A stretch of DNA of 32,982 bases, from the sequence record SRR31156797_9514; one strand, written 5' to 3'. Under the pieces are notes generated by a model that made no database searches, was not told the DNA's origin, and saw only the letters and a list, made by a program, of their open reading frames with translations. Shown in pieces: positions 1,660 to 10,785 of the stretch. Each line of letters begins with the position of its first letter. Position 1 is the first letter of the stretch. A program made the translations under genes and the position numbers.

Positions 1660-3651
1660 ATGGAATGGTATGCAGCGTCAGAATTGATAGGTCTAGCTGG
1701 ACTGCCTAGTACAGTTCAAGGGATTAATTATAAAGCTAAGAGTGAAAGCTGGATGGCTAGACCTAGAAGTGGTCATGGTGGTGGTAAGGAATACCACGTC
1801 TCCTCACTTGCCCCAGTGGTGCAAGCTAGCTTGTATCACAGAGAAGGAAGAATCAAAGTCGGTGACTTAGTTCTTGAGTTACCAAAAAAGAAAAGCCAGC
1901 AAAGTTACTGTCGTGAGGCGCTTTGGAACCGTTGGAACAAAACCAACAACAAAGCGAAAGACAAGGCTCAGCAATCCCTCAAAGCTGTTCAAGCCGTCTT
2001 CGCGCTAAAAAGTAATGGCATCAGTTTGATGGACGCATACCACTCAGTTTCAAAAGAGTATGACGTTCCTTTCTCTACCCTTCGTCGCCACTGTGCGGCT
2101 GTGAAAGGTATTGATGAATGCGATTGGGCACCCGCTCTGCTTCCTAAGCAGTTCGAAGCAGCACAAGCACAAACCAAAAAGGCTAAACAATTTGCGTATA
2201 TCACGCCTGACGCTTGGGAGTTCTTCAAGTCGGACTACCTACGGTCTGAACAACCAGCAATGTCAGCTTGTTACGAACGCCTTAAAGATGCTGCTGATCA
2301 GAATGGATGGGAGTACCCAAGCCTTAAAAGTTTGGAGCGTCGTCTGAAACATGAAGTGCCTAAACCACAAATCGTGATGTTGCGACAAGGCGAACACGCG
2401 TTACATCAGTTGTATCCACCGCAAGAGCGTACTGTGGAAAGTCTCCACGCGCTGCAATGGATAAACGGCGATGGCTACCAGCACAACGTGTTTGTTAAGT
2501 GGTTTAACGGTGAAACTCTTCGCCCTAAAACATGGTTCTGGCAAGACGTATACAGCCGCAAGATCGTGGGTTGGCGTTGTGATGTCAGCGAAAACACAGA
2601 CAGCATTCGCCTTTCATTAATGGACGTGTGCGAAAAGTTCGGTGTGCCAAAAGAAATCACATTGGATAACACCCGTGCAGCCGCGAACAAGTGGATGACA
2701 GGCGGCGTTCCTAACCGTTACCGCTTCAAAGTCAAGGAAGATGATCCACTTGGCATCATCCCAATGATGAATATCAAACTGCATTGGTCAAGCGTGATTC
2801 TTGGTAAAGGTCATGGTCAGGCAAAACCGATTGAACGTGCGTTTGGTGTGGGCGGTTTAGAAGAGTACATCGACAAACATCCGGCATGTCATGGCGCTTA
2901 CACGGGTTCAAATCCGATGGCGAAGCCAGACAACTACGGCAGCAAAGCAATTGATGCAGAAGTGTTCCTTGAAGCAATAGCCAAAGGCGTCGAAATGTTC
3001 AATGCCAAAGCAAACCGCAACACGGAAATTTGCCAAGGCTTTATGAGTTTCAACCAAGCATTCAATGCCAGTTATGAATCTGCGCCTATCCGCAAAGCAA
3101 CACCTGAGCAGTTGCAAATGATGATGCTGCAAGCAGAAGCGGTTCGCGTTTCTAAACACGGAACCATCGTTCTTGATGCTGGCGGAACATTGAAAGGTCG
3201 TAAGAACCGTTACCACCACCAAGTGATGATGGACTACGTAGGTCAAAAACTCGTGGCACGTTTCGACCCTTTGAAGCTGCATGAGTCGGTAGAGATTTAC
3301 ACCCTAAACGGTGTGCATGTTTGCTCTGCGGAATGTTTGGAAAAAGTGGGCTTTGGCGATACGCAAGCGGCTCGCGAGCATAAGCGTCACCGCACTCAAG
3401 CAACCAAAGCGCACAAGATTGCTGCGCAAGCACAAACCACCATGGATGCAATAGAACTGGCTGCTTTGATGAAGCCGCTTGAAGAAGAAGTGATCCCTGA
3501 AACCAAAGTGGTTGAACCGTTCCGACCTGTGGCAATTGGTAACACCGCTGCCGTGATTCACCACCAGGAAGAAACCGAAGACGAATACGAATCCGCTTAT
3601 GCCAACAGCATTGCATCGCTATTGGAACAACGCGCTAAAAACCGCCTTTAA
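1660..3651 (+). CDS. A: Mu-type DDE transposase A
   Basis: 663 aa. N-terminal Mu DNA-binding domain (GGGKEYHVSSL), DDE motifs WINGDGY / ITLDNTRA / AKPIERAF, and C-terminal RFDP..LH motif. Confidence 0.96.
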   Translation: MEWYAASELIGLAGLPSTVQGINYKAKSESWMARPRSGHGGGKEYHVSSLAPVVQASLYHREGRIKVGDLVLELPKKKSQQSYCREALWNRWNKTNNKAKDKAQQSLKAVQAVFALKSNGISLMDAYHSVSKEYDVPFSTLRRHCAAVKGIDECDWAPALLPKQFEAAQAQTKKAKQFAYITPDAWEFFKSDYLRSEQPAMSACYERLKDAADQNGWEYPSLKSLERRLKHEVPKPQIVMLRQGEHALHQLYPPQERTVESLHALQWINGDGYQHNVFVKWFNGETLRPKTWFWQDVYSRKIVGWRCDVSENTDSIRLSLMDVCEKFGVPKEITLDNTRAAANKWMTGGVPNRYRFKVKEDDPLGIIPMMNIKLHWSSVILGKGHGQAKPIERAFGVGGLEEYIDKHPACHGAYTGSNPMAKPDNYGSKAIDAEVFLEAIAKGVEMFNAKANRNTEICQGFMSFNQAFNASYESAPIRKATPEQLQMMMLQAEAVRVSKHGTIVLDAGGTLKGRKNRYHHQVMMDYVGQKLVARFDPLKLHESVEIYTLNGVHVCSAECLEKVGFGDTQAAREHKRHRTQATKAHKIAAQAQTTMDAIELAALMKPLEEEVIPETKVVEPFRPVAIGNTAAVIHHQEETEDEYESAYANSIASLLEQRAKNRL

Positions 3652-3675: not shown

Positions 3676-4620
3676 ATGGACAACGTAGTGGCCTTAGCTA
3701 AGGCAGAAGTAAAAGAGACTGACATCCTTATGCGTATCAAAAGCGTGTTGGAGTCAAAAGTAATTACATCCGCACAAATGGCAAAAGAGATCAGCGTTTC
3801 ACCTGCTGCTTTAAGTCAGGTTATTGCAGGTAAGTACGCCGCAGACCCTAGCGCGATCATCGAAAAACTTGAGAACTGGTTACGCTTGAGTGATGAAAAA
3901 AAGGCAACGCCAAATATCAACCCTGGCTTTGTTATGACGGAAACCGCACAGCTAATCACTCGCGATTTAACTTACGCACAAGTAACGGAATCAATCGTAG
4001 TTATCTACGGAGCTTCAGGTGTTGGTAAGTCAGAAGCGTTGCGTGAGTACAAACGCAAGAACAACAACGTGTGGATGGTGACAGCCAGCCCAAGCCGTTC
4101 AAGCCTCACTGAATGTATGTACGAAATTGCCATGGAACTAGGGCTTGATGATGCACCTCGCCGCAAAGGTCCTCTTTCTCGCGTAGTGCGTAACCGCCTG
4201 AATAGAAGCGAAGGCTTAGTGATTATCGACGAAGCCGATCACCTTGATTACCCAACACTGGAAGAGCTTCGAATTCTTCAAGAAGAAACAGGTATTGGCA
4301 TGGTGTTCGTGGGTAACAACAAGGTTTACACCCAGCTTACTGGTGGTCGCCGTAATGAAGACTTTGCTCGTCTGTTCTCACGCATTGCGAAGAAGCGCGG
4401 CTTGCATAAAACCCGCCTTGCTGACGTTCGAACTATCGCTCAGGCGTGGCAAATATCTAGCGAAAAAGAAATGAACCTGATGGTGCAAATCAGTGAGCGC
4501 CCAGGTGGATTGCGTCTGCTTACCAAAACTCTGAAATTGGCGGCGATGTTTGCCAACAACAACCCGATTACAGAGAAGGTATTGCGCCAAGCGTTCAACG
4601 AACTAGAAGCGAATGAGTGA
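3676..4620 (+). CDS. B: MuB-like AAA+ transposition ATPase
   Basis: N-terminal HTH, Walker A GASGVGKS, Walker B IIDEAD; follows gene A. Confidence 0.95.
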   Translation: MDNVVALAKAEVKETDILMRIKSVLESKVITSAQMAKEISVSPAALSQVIAGKYAADPSAIIEKLENWLRLSDEKKATPNINPGFVMTETAQLITRDLTYAQVTESIVVIYGASGVGKSEALREYKRKNNNVWMVTASPSRSSLTECMYEIAMELGLDDAPRRKGPLSRVVRNRLNRSEGLVIIDEADHLDYPTLEELRILQEETGIGMVFVGNNKVYTQLTGGRRNEDFARLFSRIAKKRGLHKTRLADVRTIAQAWQISSEKEMNLMVQISERPGGLRLLTKTLKLAAMFANNNPITEKVLRQAFNELEANE

Positions 4621-5685: not shown

Positions 5686-6303
5686 ATGACTACCACTAAC
5701 CAACCACAAGAAGGCTTTCGCTTTAACTCACTTGGTCACCAAGTGCCAGAAAGCCAAATCAAAGACATCGACAAACTGCGTGATGAAGTTGTCATGGGCA
5801 TTGTCGAAAAGGCGAAAGAAGCACAAACCATGATGGCGCAATTCAAAGGCGAAGCCATGGCAGAAGTGGCTGACTTCGTAGACCTAAGCTCAGCCGAGTT
5901 TGATGTGAAGTATGGCGGTACTAAGGGCAACGTTACGCTTTTGTCGTTCGATGGCAAATACAAAGTCCAACGCTCTATTGGCGAGCACCGTGTGTTTGAT
6001 GAACGCATTCAGGCAGCAAAGGCAAAGATTGACGAGTGCATTATGCGTTGGTCAGAAGGTTCTAATGACCACATCAAAGCCATTGTTGAGCTGTCGTTCC
6101 GCGTCAACAAACAAGGTCACATCGATGTGAACCAAGTGCTCTCACTGCGTCAGTTAAACATTGATGACCCTGACTGGTTAGAAGCGATGGATGCCATTGC
6201 AGACTCAATGCGCGTAGTGGGCAAAACACCATACCTACGTATTTACGAACGCCAAGGTGATGGGCAGTACAAACAAATCGCTCTCGATATCGCCAAGCTC
6301 TAA
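5686..6303 (+). CDS. DUF3164 family protein of Mu-like phages
   Basis: GGxKGNVTLxSFDG...FDERIQAAKAKIDEC...W motif; typical size and position. Confidence 0.85.
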   Translation: MTTTNQPQEGFRFNSLGHQVPESQIKDIDKLRDEVVMGIVEKAKEAQTMMAQFKGEAMAEVADFVDLSSAEFDVKYGGTKGNVTLLSFDGKYKVQRSIGEHRVFDERIQAAKAKIDECIMRWSEGSNDHIKAIVELSFRVNKQGHIDVNQVLSLRQLNIDDPDWLEAMDAIADSMRVVGKTPYLRIYERQGDGQYKQIALDIAKL

Positions 6304-6804: not shown

Positions 6805-6964
6805 CAACAAATTGATCGCCCACATCATGCATCACAAGCGATGCACTCAAGAGGATGCGGAAAAGTGGGCTGATAGATACTGCGGGGATTGGCGGAATAC
6901 GCCTCTCCCCAAAGCCAAACGAATTAATTCAATTTCAAGTGATGAGAAGGAATGGGACGAATGA
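6773..6964 (+). CDS. Hypothetical protein
   Basis: SD GAGG upstream; ATGA overlap with the next gene. Confidence 0.55.
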   Translation: MAKTPKVKPPSNKLIAHIMHHKRCTQEDAEKWADRYCGDWRNTPLPKAKRINSISSDEKEWDE

Positions 6965-7641
6965 AAGAGAAGATTTTAGACAAAATCAAAAAGCTATTAA
7001 GGCTAGCTGCATCAAGCAATCCAAACGAAGCAGCATTGGCGTTGTCTCGCGCTCAAAAGTTAATGCAAGAGCATGGCATTCAAAGCGACTCACCAGAGCT
7101 TGCGGGTGTTAATGAGCAAGTCATAGATGCCATGTCGAAAGCCAAAACTCCAACTAAATATTTTGGGATGTTAGCGCACTCGATAGCAAAAGCTTTTGGT
7201 TGTGAATATTACCTACAGCCAACCTTCACAAATATGGGCGTTGTTTTTATTGGTCATGATGAGCGCCCAAAAATAGCTGGATATGTTTTCGCTGTTCTAG
7301 AGCGACAGCTTATGAAAGCGCGAAAGGAGTTTATTGAAAGCCTTAACTCGCGAATGAAAAAGCAAAACAAAACCAAGCGAGCTGACCAGTTTTGTGAAGG
7401 TTGGTGCATTGGGGTTTACAGAAAGATTGAGCAATTTGCTCTATCAGACAAAGAGCAACAAGAGATCCAAACGTTCAAGCAAAGCATTGACGACCTTTCA
7501 TCATGTAACGCCCGTGAAGCAAAAGGCTCTGGTATGGCGGCGGATGAATCAAAAAGGAAAGGTTATGCAGCAGCTAGAGATGTGACGCTCAACCACGGTG
7601 TTAGCGGTACTGAAACCATGAAACTTGGAGCAGCACTATGA
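6961..7641 (+). CDS. DUF2786 domain protein
   Basis: KILDKIKKLLRLA.S.NPNEAALAL..AQKLM N-terminal signature. Confidence 0.85.
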   Translation: MKEKILDKIKKLLRLAASSNPNEAALALSRAQKLMQEHGIQSDSPELAGVNEQVIDAMSKAKTPTKYFGMLAHSIAKAFGCEYYLQPTFTNMGVVFIGHDERPKIAGYVFAVLERQLMKARKEFIESLNSRMKKQNKTKRADQFCEGWCIGVYRKIEQFALSDKEQQEIQTFKQSIDDLSSCNAREAKGSGMAADESKRKGYAAARDVTLNHGVSGTETMKLGAAL

Positions 7642-8174
7642 AACTCACCCGTTGCCCTGTGTGCCATAGCCAAATCAGCCTAGATGCTTTGGTAGCTGAT
7701 GACTCAGGCCGTGAGCTGCTGGCTAAGGTTGCAAGCCTGCCTGATTTCGTTGCGCGTCCAATGCTGGAGTACTTGGGTTTGTTCCGTCCTGCGAAGTCTG
7801 ACTTATCGCTAACCAGAACGTTGCGCTTACTGACTGAAGTCACGGATGAGTTCCGAGCAGATCATGTACTGGCTTCCGCTTTGGTTGAGTGCGTGAACAA
7901 GCTGCGTGAAAAACGTATCCAGTACAGCGACACCAAGCCACTGGCTAACCACAACTACTTGAAACAGGTTTACCAGACCACTGCGGTTCGCAATAACGTC
8001 AGTGCTAAAACGTCATCCGTTCAGGGAGAAAAACAGGAAACGACCAAACCGGATGATAGTGATTGGTACATCCAACAAGCCAAACGAATGCAAGCTGCTG
8101 GGCAAGATCCACTTGGCAAACAAAGCGCTATTGCAGCCAAGCTGCGTGAATTGAATTGGAAAGCGGAGATTTAG
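7638..8174 (+). CDS. Conserved Mu-like phage protein with N-terminal CxxC
   Basis: MKLTRCPVCH...YLGLFRPAKSDL...PLANHNYLKQV pattern; SD GGAG; ATGA overlap. Confidence 0.75.
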   Translation: MKLTRCPVCHSQISLDALVADDSGRELLAKVASLPDFVARPMLEYLGLFRPAKSDLSLTRTLRLLTEVTDEFRADHVLASALVECVNKLREKRIQYSDTKPLANHNYLKQVYQTTAVRNNVSAKTSSVQGEKQETTKPDDSDWYIQQAKRMQAAGQDPLGKQSAIAAKLRELNWKAEI

Positions 8175-8177
8175 TAA

Positions 8178-8354
8178 ATGGAAATTAGAGAGCCGTCCCC
8201 ACAAGAAGAGTTGGAGTTTGCAGCTAAGGCTTTAGATGCAATGGTCGAGTCTGCTTTACAGCACGGATTCTTACTCAGATCTGAAGTTCTTGAAGCAATG
8301 CTTTTGATGATTAAAGGGAAAAAAATTGTGTATTTCCCAGAGCGTTACAAGTAA
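8178..8354 (+). CDS. Small hypothetical protein, 58 aa (not in ORF track)
   Basis: SD GGAG at 8165-8168, ATG 8178, MEIREPSPQEELEF...YFPERYK, stop TAA 8352-8354. Confidence 0.65.
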   Translation: MEIREPSPQEELEFAAKALDAMVESALQHGFLLRSEVLEAMLLMIKGKKIVYFPERYK

Positions 8355-8420
8355 GCGAAACAAGCAAGGTTCGCCTTGCTTGTCTGCCTAGCGTGGTTGC
8401 TAGGTACTGATGAGCAGCCA
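8355..8420 (+). ncRNA. Type II hammerhead ribozyme with loop I pseudoknot
   Basis: GAAA 8357-8360; stem III 8360-8369/8374-8383 with UUCG loop; GUC triplet 8382-8384; stem I 8385-8392/8399-8406; CUGAUGA 8407-8413; stem II GC 8355-8356/8414-8415; pseudoknot UGGUU 8394-8398 with AGCCA 8416-8420. Confidence 0.93.
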
Positions 8421-8433
8421 AGGGAGAAAGACT

Positions 8434-8682
8434 ATGTTCTTCGGTGAATATACTCCATTGCTAAGCCAACAGTTGTTACAACGCCGCTTGGCGAATGGTA
8501 AAGCACGGATTGATCCAGAAGTCGGTTTAGAAAAGTATTGCAGCCACTGTGGCGAATACTGGCCTCAAGACACTTTGTTTTGGACACCTCTCGCCAGTAG
8601 GCCAGATGGTTTGCAAGACTGGTGCAAAGCCTGCCGTTCTGAAGAAGCGAGTGCTGCTCACAGAGCAAAGAAAGCGGCATAG
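8434..8682 (+). CDS. Small Zn-finger-like protein (CxxC...CxxC)
   Basis: ATG 8434 follows SD GGGAG (8422-8426); KYCSHCGEYWP...DGLQDWCKAC. Confidence 0.75.
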   Translation: MFFGEYTPLLSQQLLQRRLANGKARIDPEVGLEKYCSHCGEYWPQDTLFWTPLASRPDGLQDWCKACRSEEASAAHRAKKAA

Positions 8683-8690
8683 GAGGTGTT

Positions 8691-8894
8691 ATGAATAACG
8701 AACTAAAAACTTACTACCGCACTCTTCATTCCTTTTTGAAGCATCAAGAGAAGGATAAGAACTTGCTGGTTAGAACTGACTTCGGCTGGCATTTAGCATT
8801 AGCTTGTAAGTCAAAAACAAAGGCAGGAAGAAAGTATAATAGGCTTACGAAGCTTATCCGAAAGATTAAGAAAGCGAGGAATCGGTATGTCTAA
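8691..8894 (+). CDS. Small, highly basic hypothetical protein
   Basis: Strong SD AGGAGGT; K/R-rich; overlaps the gemA start. Confidence 0.65.
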   Translation: MNNELKTYYRTLHSFLKHQEKDKNLLVRTDFGWHLALACKSKTKAGRKYNRLTKLIRKIKKARNRYV

Positions 8895-9414
8895 CCTACT
8901 CAAACTCGTTCAAATTGGTAAGCGTGAACTAGGGCTTGATGATGACATGTATCGAGACATGCTCCAGCAAACGGTTGGTCAACGCAGTTCAAAGAACCTT
9001 AGCCAGTGGCAGCTTTCTAAAGTTCTCGATCATATGAAAGCGTTGGGCTTTAAACCAAAACCTAAACCAGCAGCAAAACCACAAGCAAGATTGCCAGAGT
9101 GTAAAAAGATTCTGGCTATCTGGATCACCATGCGCAAGCAAGGTTTCATTAAGAACGCCAGCGATGCTGCTCTCGACGCTTTCGTTAAACGTATGACTAG
9201 CCAAATCAACGGCGGTCAGGGTATTGAAAAACTTAACTGGTTAAAATCTGAGGACGCTTACCGCGTTCTCGAAGCATTAAAACGCTGGCATTATCGTGTG
9301 ATGAAAGAAGCAATTCTTGCTGCTGGCGGGCGTATACCGTCAAATGATGACTGCACTGGTCCTGCTGGATATGGTAAGTTGGCGGAATATTATCAAGAAT
9401 TTATAGGAAAATGA
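8887..9414 (+). CDS. gemA: GemA / Mu gp16 family (DUF1018) regulator
   Basis: IGKRELGLDDDMYRDML...G.RSSK.L...GF...KILAIW...VLEALKRW signature; lies upstream of the mor-like gene. Confidence 0.9.
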   Translation: MSNLLKLVQIGKRELGLDDDMYRDMLQQTVGQRSSKNLSQWQLSKVLDHMKALGFKPKPKPAAKPQARLPECKKILAIWITMRKQGFIKNASDAALDAFVKRMTSQINGGQGIEKLNWLKSEDAYRVLEALKRWHYRVMKEAILAAGGRIPSNDDCTGPAGYGKLAEYYQEFIGK

Positions 9415-9647
9415 TTATGGATTTTATCGATATAGCGAAATTTGTTGTTAGTGCATTAATGGGGTTAATCAGTACCGCTGTGACGTTAGGGTTTATCTTT
9501 CTGATCTGGGGCGTCTTTCGCGGTTTCGATTGGGACCTCTATGTATTTCTAACAGGTATCGGAAAGATTGTAGGTGTAATATTTTTGGCTTGTTACGGGA
9601 TATGGTTTGTCACTAAGCGAAGAAATAACAACGACGCAAATTACTAA
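9411..9647 (+). CDS. Small membrane protein (2 predicted TM)
   Basis: Two long hydrophobic stretches and a basic C-terminus; ATGA overlap with gemA. Confidence 0.65.
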   Translation: MIMDFIDIAKFVVSALMGLISTAVTLGFIFLIWGVFRGFDWDLYVFLTGIGKIVGVIFLACYGIWFVTKRRNNNDANY

Positions 9648-9685
9648 ACACCACCTAACCACCATAGCTGCTGTTGTATAGTACG

Positions 9686-9711
9686 AACACCTCCCACGCG
9701 GAGGTGTTTTT
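9686..9711 (+). terminator. Terminator-like hairpin before the Mor/C gene
   Basis: AACACCTCC-CACGC-GGAGGTGTT followed by TTT. Confidence 0.65.
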
Positions 9712-9724
9712 GTATCTGGAGGTT

Positions 9725-10147
9725 ATGATGAGAAACCAAACAAAGCTTGAAAAAGTGAACCTAGATTTGTTCGGGTTTGAAAACGTAAGCATTGAAGACT
9801 TAGACCAACTGCTACCCACTGAAGAAAATAGCGTTCGATGGCCTGAGATGATGCTCACCATTTTTGAATCATTGCGTGATGAGTGCGCTAAGATGAATCT
9901 TGATGAACGTACTGCGTTAGTGTTCCTATCGCGTCTTTGCAAAGACACGGGCGGTTTGCAGTATTACTTTCCTAAAGGTGATCAGCTTGAGCACCAGCTA
10001 AAGAGTATGTATATTTGGCGCGAGTTCAACGGAAAGAACGTTCCTGAACTTGCTCTCAAGTATGATATCTCAACTCAGAACGTATACGCCGCCATCAGAA
10101 AGATGCGCAGCCTTGAGTATAAGAAGCGTCAGCCACAGCTTTTCTAG
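9725..10147 (+). CDS. mor: Mor/C family transcription activator
   Basis: SD GGAGG 9718-9722; WPE...GGLQYYFPKG...IWREFNGKNVPELALKY...RQPQLF signature. Confidence 0.9.
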   Translation: MMRNQTKLEKVNLDLFGFENVSIEDLDQLLPTEENSVRWPEMMLTIFESLRDECAKMNLDERTALVFLSRLCKDTGGLQYYFPKGDQLEHQLKSMYIWREFNGKNVPELALKYDISTQNVYAAIRKMRSLEYKKRQPQLF

Positions 10148-10236: not shown

Positions 10237-10785
10237 ATGCTTTCTACGTACCCATTCTCGACCAAAGGTTACACGCCTGAATTTTGTCATGCGGTGCATT
10301 TCATTCTAGAAATGGAAGGCGGACTTCGCGCAGATGGCGGATATGTTAACGATCCAGAAGATGCAGGTGGAGAAACCAAATACGGCATCAGTAAACGTGC
10401 TTTCCCCAACCGCGACATTAAATCACTCACCATTGATGACGCAGTTCGCATCTACTACACCAACTACTGGAAGCCAGCTTATTGCCCTGAGTGGTCTGGT
10501 CCTGTAGCGCTTTACGCTTTTGACTCTGCTGTTCAGCATGGTGTTGATAATGCTATCCGCATGCTGCAAGAAATTAGTGGCAGCAAACCAGATGGTAAGG
10601 TTGGTCCTAAAACTCGTGCCGCCATTCATAGTTGTGATGTTGAGTATCTCTGTGCTCGTTATGGTCTGCGTCGTGGTCGCTTCTATGCACGAATCCTGAA
10701 GAACAATTCTAGCCAAGGTAAGTTTATTGAAGGTTGGTACAACCGCTTAGTTCACCTTACCAACGCCGCATGGGAGATGGCTTAA
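10237..10785 (+). CDS. Endolysin, glycoside hydrolase family 108 with peptidoglycan-binding C-terminus
   Basis: EGG...YVNDPEDAGGETKYGI, FDSAVQHG, DGKVGPKT and F.EGW.NR motifs. Confidence 0.9.
   Translation: MLSTYPFSTKGYTPEFCHAVHFILEMEGGLRADGGYVNDPEDAGGETKYGISKRAFPNRDIKSLTIDDAVRIYYTNYWKPAYCPEWSGPVALYAFDSAVQHGVDNAIRMLQEISGSKPDGKVGPKTRAAIHSCDVEYLCARYGLRRGRFYARILKNNSSQGKFIEGWYNRLVHLTNAAWEMA

Follow-up and report, generated by a model that had tools for sequence, protein, structure and literature searches.

Type II hammerhead ribozymes with a stem II of only 2 base pairs (bp) and a pseudoknot between loop I and the 3' tail have been described from prophage contexts, and the pseudoknot was verified with compensatory mutants (Perreault 2011, PMC3088659). 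In the same work, phage hammerheads cut polycistronic RNAs of ~2 kb in vitro, a fragment from Agrobacterium tumefaciens cleaved in E. coli, and it was suggested that transcripts are in this way processed into gene-length mRNAs. In Desulfovibrio vulgaris, three type II hammerheads close to phage genes were reported to cleave in vivo on the basis of cyPhyRNA-seq (PMC8782182). Among the gene associations of hammerhead and twister ribozymes in bacteria, those with genes of Mu-like phages are the strongest, for a reason that was given as "still unknown" (PMC10085705, citing Roth 2014 and Weinberg 2015), and the purpose of bacterial and phage hammerheads has been an open question since 2011. The copy studied here lies at positions 8353-8423 (+ strand) of a DNA stretch of 32,982 nucleotides from sequence record SRR31156797_9514, which was analysed at its full length and is called the window below. 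By its gene content the window is a Mu-like transposable prophage, and the ribozyme lies within the early operon. The best explanation of the copy, at a probability of roughly 0.55, is a catalytically competent ribozyme that would split the early transcript and uncouple the stability or translation of the distal genes.

Identity and anatomy of the ribozyme

With cmscan, 8353-8423 (+) matched the Rfam family Hammerhead_II (RF02276) over the full model (positions 1-66 of 66) at 63.9 bits and E 3.2e-11; the gathering score is 37, which the match exceeds by 27 bits, and this is far beyond chance expectation. It was the sole Rfam match in the 32,982-base window even in a permissive scan at E<=1, and a covariance model of our own (R1) gave the copy 74.1 bits. 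The Rfam scan had been suggested as a check in an earlier note on this DNA, which had read here every invariant core base in type II order, a 2-bp stem II, a pseudoknot of AGCCA with UGGUU of loop I, and a cut after C8384. Each of these elements is present, and the position of the GUC triplet agrees with the predicted cut.

The elements follow each other on the + strand in the order stem II strand, GAAA, stem III hairpin, GUC, stem I hairpin, CUGAUGA and stem II strand. Stem II consists of G8355-C8415 and C8356-G8414 (GC at 8355-8356 with GC at 8414-8415), as in the Rfam structure line, and its first strand is followed by the core GAAA at 8357-8360 (G12, A13, A14 and A15.1 by the core definition in the methods of PMC3088659). 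The stem III hairpin pairs 8360-8369 with 8374-8383 in 10 bp, A15.1-U16.1 included, around a UUCG loop at 8370-8373. The GUC triplet at 8382-8384 stands between stems III and I and places the predicted cleavage site, C17/U1.1, at C8384/U8385. The stem I hairpin pairs 8385-8392 with 8399-8406 in 8 bp, one of them G-U, with a possible extra pair G8393-U8398 in its loop GUGGUU (8393-8398), and is followed by the core CUGAUGA (C3-A9) at 8407-8413. The 3' tail AGCCA (8416-8420) is complementary to UGGUU (8394-8398) of loop I, which would give a pseudoknot of five pairs, one of them G-U.

By the core list of PMC3088659 the invariant core is complete (CUGAUGA 8407-8413, GAA 8357-8359, A8360-U8383 and C8384), and the core-adjacent pairs 10.1-11.1 (G8414-C8356), 1.1-2.1 (U8385-A8406) and 15.1-16.1 (A8360-U8383) are all intact. 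Loops close stems I and III and the 5' and 3' ends both lie in stem II, which is the type II permutation, and the pseudoknot supplies a tertiary contact in which loop I forms at least four pairs with the nucleotides immediately 3' of stem II. Single-sequence folding yields stems III and I at -28.4 kcal/mol (z -2.59), an energy equalled by 2 of 200 shuffles.

The window copy is almost certainly a genuine hammerhead of the active type. It shares with the RF02276 form of Perreault 2011 (PMC3088659) the permutation with stem II open, the invariant core, the 2-bp stem II, the pseudoknot of at least 4 bp and the prophage setting, and in structure nothing sets it apart from the described pseudoknotted type II form, although neither the copy nor its host phage is mentioned in the literature consulted. 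The ribozyme is thus real and not a new kind of RNA, and its setting has already been reported as typical. The D. vulgaris hammerheads belong to the same family and likewise lie in a phage-gene setting, but they differ in organism and loci (PMC8782182). That the stretch is a chance match or an inactive relic, hammerhead-like but non-cleaving, is very improbable: cleavage is predicted here from sequence and some hammerhead-like RNAs were inactive in Perreault 2011 (PMC3088659), but the score and E-value given above, the perfect core with its adjacent pairs intact, the conservation of the sequence in a near-identical provirus and the homologous same-slot copies in dozens of phages all argue against this.

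Distribution, slot and covariation

Two samples of Mu-like loci were chosen without the ribozyme. The first held 80 viral loci picked by DUF3164 alone and scanned with R1, and 53 copies were found in 42 of them (one copy in 32 loci, two in 9 and three in 1). All 53 lay on the DUF3164 strand, 5-2352 nucleotides (nt) downstream of DUF3164; 65 loci had matches to both DUF3164 and GemA, and in the 35 of these that carried the ribozyme a copy was always located between the two genes (35/35). The second sample held 79 MuA-picked loci from species-representative bacterial genomes, 61 of them with at least 6.5 kb downstream. Here 24 strong copies (56-78 bits) occurred in 20 loci, all on the MuA strand and 2.3-4.5 kb downstream of MuA, and 20 of the 61 full-flank loci had one or two copies. 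An extra match of 26.9 bits upstream of MuA was regarded as spurious. Close MuA relatives of the window (>=58% identity, full flank) carried the ribozyme in 15 of 16 cases, versus 5 of the remaining 45 loci. The 15 of 16 were from Vibrio, Shewanella, Rheinheimera, Marinomonas and Aeromonas.

The ribozyme is thus common, strictly oriented and slot-specific in Mu-like phages, yet optional. These samples reproduce the association reported in PMC10085705, whose passage on it gives no slot; the setting is narrowed here to the interval from DUF3164 to GemA on the operon strand, with a prevalence near one half. Another ribozyme class filling the slot was also considered and rejected, as the 38 hammerhead-less DUF3164 loci had 0 Rfam matches at gathering. 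A literature search for a ribozyme with DUF3164 found no paper, and the tables and supplements of Roth 2014 and Weinberg 2015 may list the slot; a search for the hammerhead ribozyme with Mu-like returned PMC10085705 only. A loose statistical association has in this way become a defined, testable setting with one orientation and one slot. About half of Mu-like phages have the ribozyme, which leaves natural relatives that lack it.

The closest relatives agree with this picture. A blastn search against phage records matched 14 of them; similarity to Vibrio phages begins at the ribozyme, and for Shewanella phage MuM16-2 and Ralstonia phage YO107_2 it covers the ribozyme only. Hammerhead_II scored above gathering in all five phage loci that were fetched (56-73.5 bits), in the unannotated gap from a stop codon to the next gene, and in 0 of 14 control genomes. 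The five closest phage and provirus whole records contain exactly one copy each; the near-identical IMG/VR provirus G001 (= L123) has the same ribozyme, and Vibrio phage martha 12B12, Vibrio phage vB-Vv-ZX4290 and Shewanella phage MuM16-2 are single-copy systems available as cultured phage-host pairs. The DUF3164-GemA slot, the prevalence figures, the packing against stop codons and Shine-Dalgarno (SD) motifs described below, and these cultured single-copy systems are useful additions to what has been printed. They are relevant to whether cleavage sets the stability or translation of the GemA/Mor regulatory genes versus the transposition genes, for which the cultured phages offer a setting.

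A third sample was drawn from a viral collection with a pattern that fixed the core and a GC stem II only, which gave at least 117 stretches. A best-parse rule left 108 well-formed copies in 79 of 123 sources, and the other 44 sources, with chance matches or mis-parses only, were dropped; all counts out of 108 in this text refer to copies among the matches listed. Several contigs held arrays. On the minus strand of L107 (2817-6749), 11 type II hammerheads lie within 3.9 kb, all on the same strand and each followed within ~25 nt of its tail by an SD-like motif and an ATG, which looks like a ribozyme-punctuated operon. Further arrays were seen in L041 (8), L054 (6), L121 (4), L117 (3), L058 (3) and L095 (2), i.e., 37 matches with L107, and these seven contigs contained no other Rfam family.

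Covariation across related phages, another of the proposed checks, was followed in two alignments. The first (A1) comprised 29 sequences, i.e., the window and 28 picked from 59 compact unique copies among the matches listed, and its rows had been pre-filtered for the stems, not for the pseudoknot. The second (A5) comprised the 53 copies from the DUF3164-anchored loci, fitted to the model. In the first test 99.7% of cells pair, both sides have changed at 14 of 20 pairs, and the covariation score is 0.656 versus 0.177 in shuffled alignments; in the second 98.4% of cells pair versus 78.1% in shuffles, with a score of 0.560 versus 0.177. None of 500 shuffles reached the observed score in either test, and sliding the partners by 1-3 columns lowered pairing to 22-53% in both. 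Changes on both sides were found at 8/8 pairs of stem I in the first test and 7/8 in the second, and the four variable outer pairs of stem III covary in relatives, while the stem II pairs are invariant or G-U across 51 distinct relatives.

The pseudoknot helix is 97-98% paired over both tests (97.1% in the second, with one pair changed on both sides). Covariant combinations of loop I and tail include GUGGUG/AGCCA, GUAGUG/AGCUA, GUCGCG/AGCGA and GUGUCG/AGACA, among others. At least four contiguous pseudoknot pairs were present in 76 of the 108 copies, for which the pseudoknot had never been used as a selection criterion, versus 553 of 2160 shuffled-tail controls. Stems and pseudoknot thus hold compensatory changes, and the ribozyme structure is under selection.

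Proposed processing of the early transcript

The preferred reading starts from a long early transcript of the Mu-like prophage, probably in a marine gammaproteobacterium of the Vibrionaceae type, which would include the ribozyme. Once transcription had passed ~8420, stems I and III would fold, the 2-bp stem II would close and the pseudoknot between loop I and the 3' tail would dock. The RNA would then cut itself between C8384 and U8385, so that a single polycistronic RNA would give rise to two. Of these, the upstream one (ner, A, B, DUF3164 and small early genes) would end in a 2',3'-cyclic phosphate 1 nt past stem III, and the downstream RNA (the Zn-ribbon open reading frame (ORF), gemA and mor) would start at a nucleotide that carries a 5'-OH and is already part of a stem I pair, with ~30 unstructured nt, which include the SD and the AUG, after stem I. 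Predicted folds of the two products are of this form: stem III stands at the extreme 3' end of the 5' product with an overhang of 1 nt, and the 3' product opens directly with stem I, whose first base is paired and after which the SD leader comes.

The earlier note had expected a downstream RNA that begins with a hairpin, which the fold of the product supports in its model of stem I, paired from the first nucleotide. It had also placed the ribozyme inside the early operon, as is borne out by its sense orientation among Pfam-supported Ner, MuA, MuB, DUF3164, GemA and Mor genes, and had proposed that the cut separates ner-A-B from the Zn-finger/gemA part. The second half of that proposal stands, in that the Zn-ribbon ORF and gemA lie downstream of the predicted cut; the first half has to be widened, as about ten genes lie upstream and not ner-A-B alone.

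A single-stranded 5' end with a monophosphate stimulates RNase E, E. coli mRNAs are stabilised by 5'-terminal hairpins, and 3' exonucleases and polyadenylation are hindered by 3' hairpins and 2',3'-cyclic phosphates. Because of this behaviour both products would be relatively protected and their fates uncoupled, and the stem III hairpin should protect the upstream RNA too. For the distal early and regulatory genes, stability and translation would most likely no longer depend on the transposition genes or on the upstream cassette, whichever that is. We infer cleavage in vivo and all of its consequences for RNA decay or translation, and there is about an even chance that such processing, with a consequence for stability or translation, is the selected role. 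Differential stability after hammerhead processing has already been printed as a hypothesis (PMC3088659, PMC6765202); the mechanism of the earlier note, with a downstream RNA that resists RNase E and a differential stability of transposition and regulatory genes, is a standard unproven hypothesis and not new.

Several points weigh against this reading. Stabilisation by a 5'-OH, a 5' hairpin or a cyclic phosphate is presumed here from what is generally known of RNase E, 3' exonucleases and poly(A) polymerase. A 5'-OH end made by the glmS ribozyme can lead to degradation (PMC6765202); like the window copy, glmS cleaves itself within a bacterial mRNA leader and would thereby alter what becomes of the downstream message, but it differs in its metabolite cofactor and fold, and its downstream mRNA is degraded, which is the opposite of the proposed stabilisation. 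In the second covariation test, the 12 pairs with changes on both sides were equalled by 32 of 500 shuffles, which is not significant. Core changes occur in same-slot copies, i.e., G12 to U in L192:5598-5670 and U4 to C in L176:4318-4386, and the copy in L200:6255-6320 has a degenerate core containing N; some decay is thus tolerated, with degraded copies beside intact ones. Other copies, L181 and L167 among those noted, are altered at the free position 7 alone or contain a G-U pair within stem II.

The distribution raises a further difficulty. No hammerhead was found in 38 of the 80 DUF3164 loci, which also had 0 Rfam matches at gathering, nor a type II hammerhead in 41 of the 61 MuA-anchored prophages. 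None was present within 8 kb downstream of MuA in the E. coli/Shigella loci (L243, L258) or in the Pasteurellaceae loci (Haemophilus, Mannheimia, Actinobacillus, Avibacterium, Pasteurella). In a GemA-anchored sample, a single-protein search that gave only 5 loci, the distant ones lacked it in 4 of 4 cases. The patchy presence implies that the ribozyme is dispensable for a Mu-like way of life and not a fixed part of the Mu programme. The downstream genes vary as well. A Pfam scan of 47 adjoining downstream ORFs (49 called, 2 duplicates excluded) gave 5 GemA, 4 other families (DUF2786/DUF7168, HU and DUF6874 once each, and NUMOD4 once, sub-threshold) and 38 with no Pfam family, and 50 downstream ORFs formed 28 clusters, with 5 ORFs of the Zn-ribbon type of the window. 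A constant gene behind the ribozyme is ruled out by this diversity, and because the downstream gene varies, no single regulated target explains the ribozyme.

The same patchiness (42/80 and 20/61 loci) would be expected if the ribozyme cleaved but were a neutral or selfish passenger, kept by linkage and frequent horizontal spread among Mu-like phages without measurable gain for the phage. The copies with core changes, the one to three copies per slot, and a function left unexplained in the literature after 15 years of study fit such a passenger as well. It is nevertheless rather unlikely, since every copy is in sense orientation (53/53 and 24/24), the slot is fixed (35/35), compensatory changes keep the stems and the pseudoknot, and the ribozyme is kept in 15/16 close MuA relatives over several genera. 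Orientation, slot, compensation and retention together argue for purifying selection on an RNA-level activity in the early operon.

RNA contigs of a relative with 95-99% identity came from four RNA-seq runs of one study; these contigs show no ends, strand or levels. The ribozyme region of this relative is present in the RNA libraries. One contig (328 nt, depth 2.6) spans the cleavage site and reaches 35 nt beyond it in one direction and 280 nt in the other; it also counts against the proposed processing: because it bridges the site, some uncleaved RNA or carried-over DNA exists, and because contigs cannot show ends, it is weak evidence either way.

The packing of the ribozyme between cistrons was compared among relatives. 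The stop codon of the upstream ORF lies within 3 nt of stem II in 53 of the 108 copies, versus 270 of 5400 random positions (5%), and it ends exactly at stem II in 22 of the 53 copies of the DUF3164-anchored sample. In 101 of the 108 copies a downstream ORF begins no more than 70 nt away, most commonly at a spacing of 17-19 nt (18 in the window), and 83 of the 108 have an SD-like motif after the ribozyme. The window copy is typical of a hammerhead class packed tightly between cistrons. A ribosome terminating at the abutting stop would cover half of stem III in addition to the stem II strand and GAAA, and the cut might be gated, be it by ribosomes that translate the upstream ORF or by the ions or ligands present; the ribozyme would then be a switch instead of a constitutive processor. 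Regulated cleavage was raised for phage hammerheads in Perreault 2011 (PMC3088659), and the bridging contig would also fit. Such gating is distinctly unlikely, as simple genome compaction predicts the tight abutment equally, the ribozyme has no extra domain for ligand binding, and pseudoknotted type II hammerheads were reported to be fast at low Mg2+ in vitro.

Pairing between the two flanks was also considered. A helix of UUUCCC (8333-8338) with GGGAGA (8422-8427), found in a 121-nt fold, would mask the SD until cleavage; it was rejected. This helix of the window was matched by 12% of shuffles and was absent in close relatives. Over 147 distinct sites the mean duplex energy between upstream and downstream flanks was -9.84 kcal/mol, versus -10.88 and -10.6 kcal/mol with the upstream segment displaced by 100 and 150 nt. 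Pairing of the 40 nt upstream with the 25 nt downstream is slightly weaker than in the displaced controls (-9.84 versus -10.88 kcal/mol, paired Wilcoxon p 0.01), and there may be mild avoidance of flank pairing that competes with the ribozyme fold.

Small-gene cassettes and the surrounding operon

The window and the provirus G001 are 88-99% identical in their aligned blocks and differ by whole small-gene cassettes. Compared with G001, the window has an extra gene-sized block of 181 nt (8169-8349) exactly at the 5' edge of the ribozyme, and the 58-aa ORF upstream is an insertion unique to the window; in G001 the TAA of the preceding gene directly abuts the ribozyme. The next block, 8350-8693, with the ribozyme and the Zn-ribbon ORF, is 98.8% identical between the two, and the segments after the Zn-ribbon gene (8693-8886) and after gemA (9426-9637) are replaced by unrelated ORFs in G001. 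Loose ends of RNA-seq contigs at 8350 and 8693 fit the G001 arrangement. DNA similarity over the ribozyme was found for 27 distinct records. In none of them does it reach upstream of 8349; in 19 it begins at 8349-8354 and in 8 within the ribozyme, and in 13 it continues into the Zn-ribbon ORF. Much of this breakpoint pattern at 8349 can be put down to the rarity of the 58-aa upstream gene, which was found in 1 of 122 loci by tblastn.

These junctions bear on the view that the ribozyme is a cassette insulator, whose role would not be differential decay but a fixed, context-independent 5' leader for the next gene, with which accessory genes shuffled through the hyper-mosaic early region would be translated alike whatever lies upstream. 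It would be a natural counterpart of RiboJ, which is built on a satellite-RNA hammerhead whose permutation is different and to which a hairpin has been added. As a synthetic precedent, ribozyme-plus-hairpin insulators placed upstream of a ribosome-binding site were reported to insulate mRNAs and make them more stable (PMC6993053, citing Lou 2012 and Clifton 2018); they share with the window a ribozyme directly before the ribosome-binding site and a hairpin leader, but they are engineered and the likeness is functional only. In nature, the ribozyme tail runs into the SD in most copies and the start mostly follows 17-19 nt past stem II, the downstream genes are diverse small ORFs, and there are arrays in which each small gene has its own ribozyme (11 copies within 3.9 kb in L107). 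The insertion exactly at the 5' edge, the 98.8% identity of the block behind it and the 0/27 records that pass upstream of 8349, with 13 entering the Zn-ribbon ORF, could also be read in this way. On the other hand, the junctions at 8693, 8886, 9426 and 9637 are without a ribozyme, the breakpoint pattern is largely due to the rarity of the upstream gene, and flank pairing no stronger than in displaced controls gives no sign of interference from the flanks. An insulating role is fairly unlikely.

Slightly further from probable is a related idea, in which the ribozyme is the 5' boundary of a promoter-less, ribozyme-led accessory-gene cassette that is swapped among Mu-like phages and possibly carries anti-restriction genes such as the Lar-like Zn-ribbon ORF. 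If this were true, the hammerhead would free each acquired gene from the long early transcript and give it a standard hairpin-capped leader for plug-and-play expression, and the concentration of ribozymes in the hyper-mosaic early region of Mu-like phages would be explained. In a bolder form of the idea, the near-invariant 14-nt CUGAUGAGCAGCC would double as microhomology for cassette exchange. Hammerheads clustered around single prophage genes, e.g., ardA in Agrobacterium tumefaciens and Legionella, were described in Perreault 2011 (PMC3088659). Like the window copy they are intercistronic and stand directly before a small accessory gene, which the Lar-like match echoes weakly (E 1.2e-6), but they are clustered, whereas the window and the five closest phage and provirus records are single-copy. 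Given ardA behind hammerheads in these two genera and the weak Lar-like match, anti-defence genes may, by analogy, be a recurrent partner of hammerheads.

The gene directly behind the ribozyme is the 82-aa Zn-ribbon ORF at 8434-8682 (+), which has two CxxC motifs and an ATG 18 nt past stem II; its SD-like GGGAGA (8422-8427, +) begins 2 nt past the ribozyme tail. It matched phrog_3273 (function unknown) at E 1.8e-24 and, weakly, the Lar-like restriction alleviation family phrog_5558, and it matched no Pfam family. The 58-aa ORF upstream (8178-8354, +) belongs to no family, and its TAA stop at 8352-8354 overlaps model positions 1-2. The + strand gene run is dense, with the ribozyme in sense orientation wedged between this stop codon and the SD of the next gene. 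An AUG inside the ribozyme (8410-8412, within CUGAUGA) is in frame and would open an ORF at 8410-8682; it was rejected as a start, with no SD before it and no in-frame spacing preference. Because the spacings in the family show no preference for multiples of three, this AUG is regarded as a coincidence and the start is taken as 8434.

Ner, MuA, MuB, GemA and Mor were found in Mu order with a divergent repressor, supported by the Pfam families HTH_35, DDE_2, HTH_Tnp_Mu_1, HTH_Tnp_Mu_2, Mu-transpos_C, Phage-MuB_C, GemA, Mor and Peptidase_S24. The S24 repressor (Peptidase_S24) lies at 269-1219 on the minus strand, and the genes that follow are all on the + strand. A strong promoter-like TTGACA-16-TAGTAT (1308-1335, 10/12 by consensus match only) is a candidate early promoter before ner (1400-1657, HTH_35). 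The Mu transposase A gene is at 1660-3651 (DDE_2 with Mu DNA-binding domains), MuB at 3676-4620 (Phage-MuB_C, AAA_22), the DUF3164 gene, which is the upstream landmark of the ribozyme slot, at 5686-6303 (PF11363, E 5.8e-83), and a DUF2786/DUF7168 gene at 6952-7641. No convincing + strand terminator was found before the ribozyme, where the weak sites lie within coding DNA and are no more numerous than in shuffles. The downstream landmarks are gemA at 8887-9414 (PF06252, E 3.2e-38) and mor at 9674-10147 (PF08765, E 8.7e-25), with a small membrane-like ORF between them (9411-9647), and an endolysin gene is located at 10237-10785 by Pfam. The nearest MuA relatives (70-76% identity) are in prophages of Vibrio, Enterovibrio, Photobacterium, Aliivibrio, Shewanella and Rheinheimera.

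Further promoter-like sites are present at 9366-9393 and 9987-10015. A terminator-like 10-bp hairpin with a T-rich stretch occurs at 9685-9709 (+), just inside the longest mor ORF (TTG at 9674). The Mor domain begins only at residue 55, so that the true mor start is probably further downstream, and the hairpin may be a terminator or attenuator that separates mor from the preceding genes.

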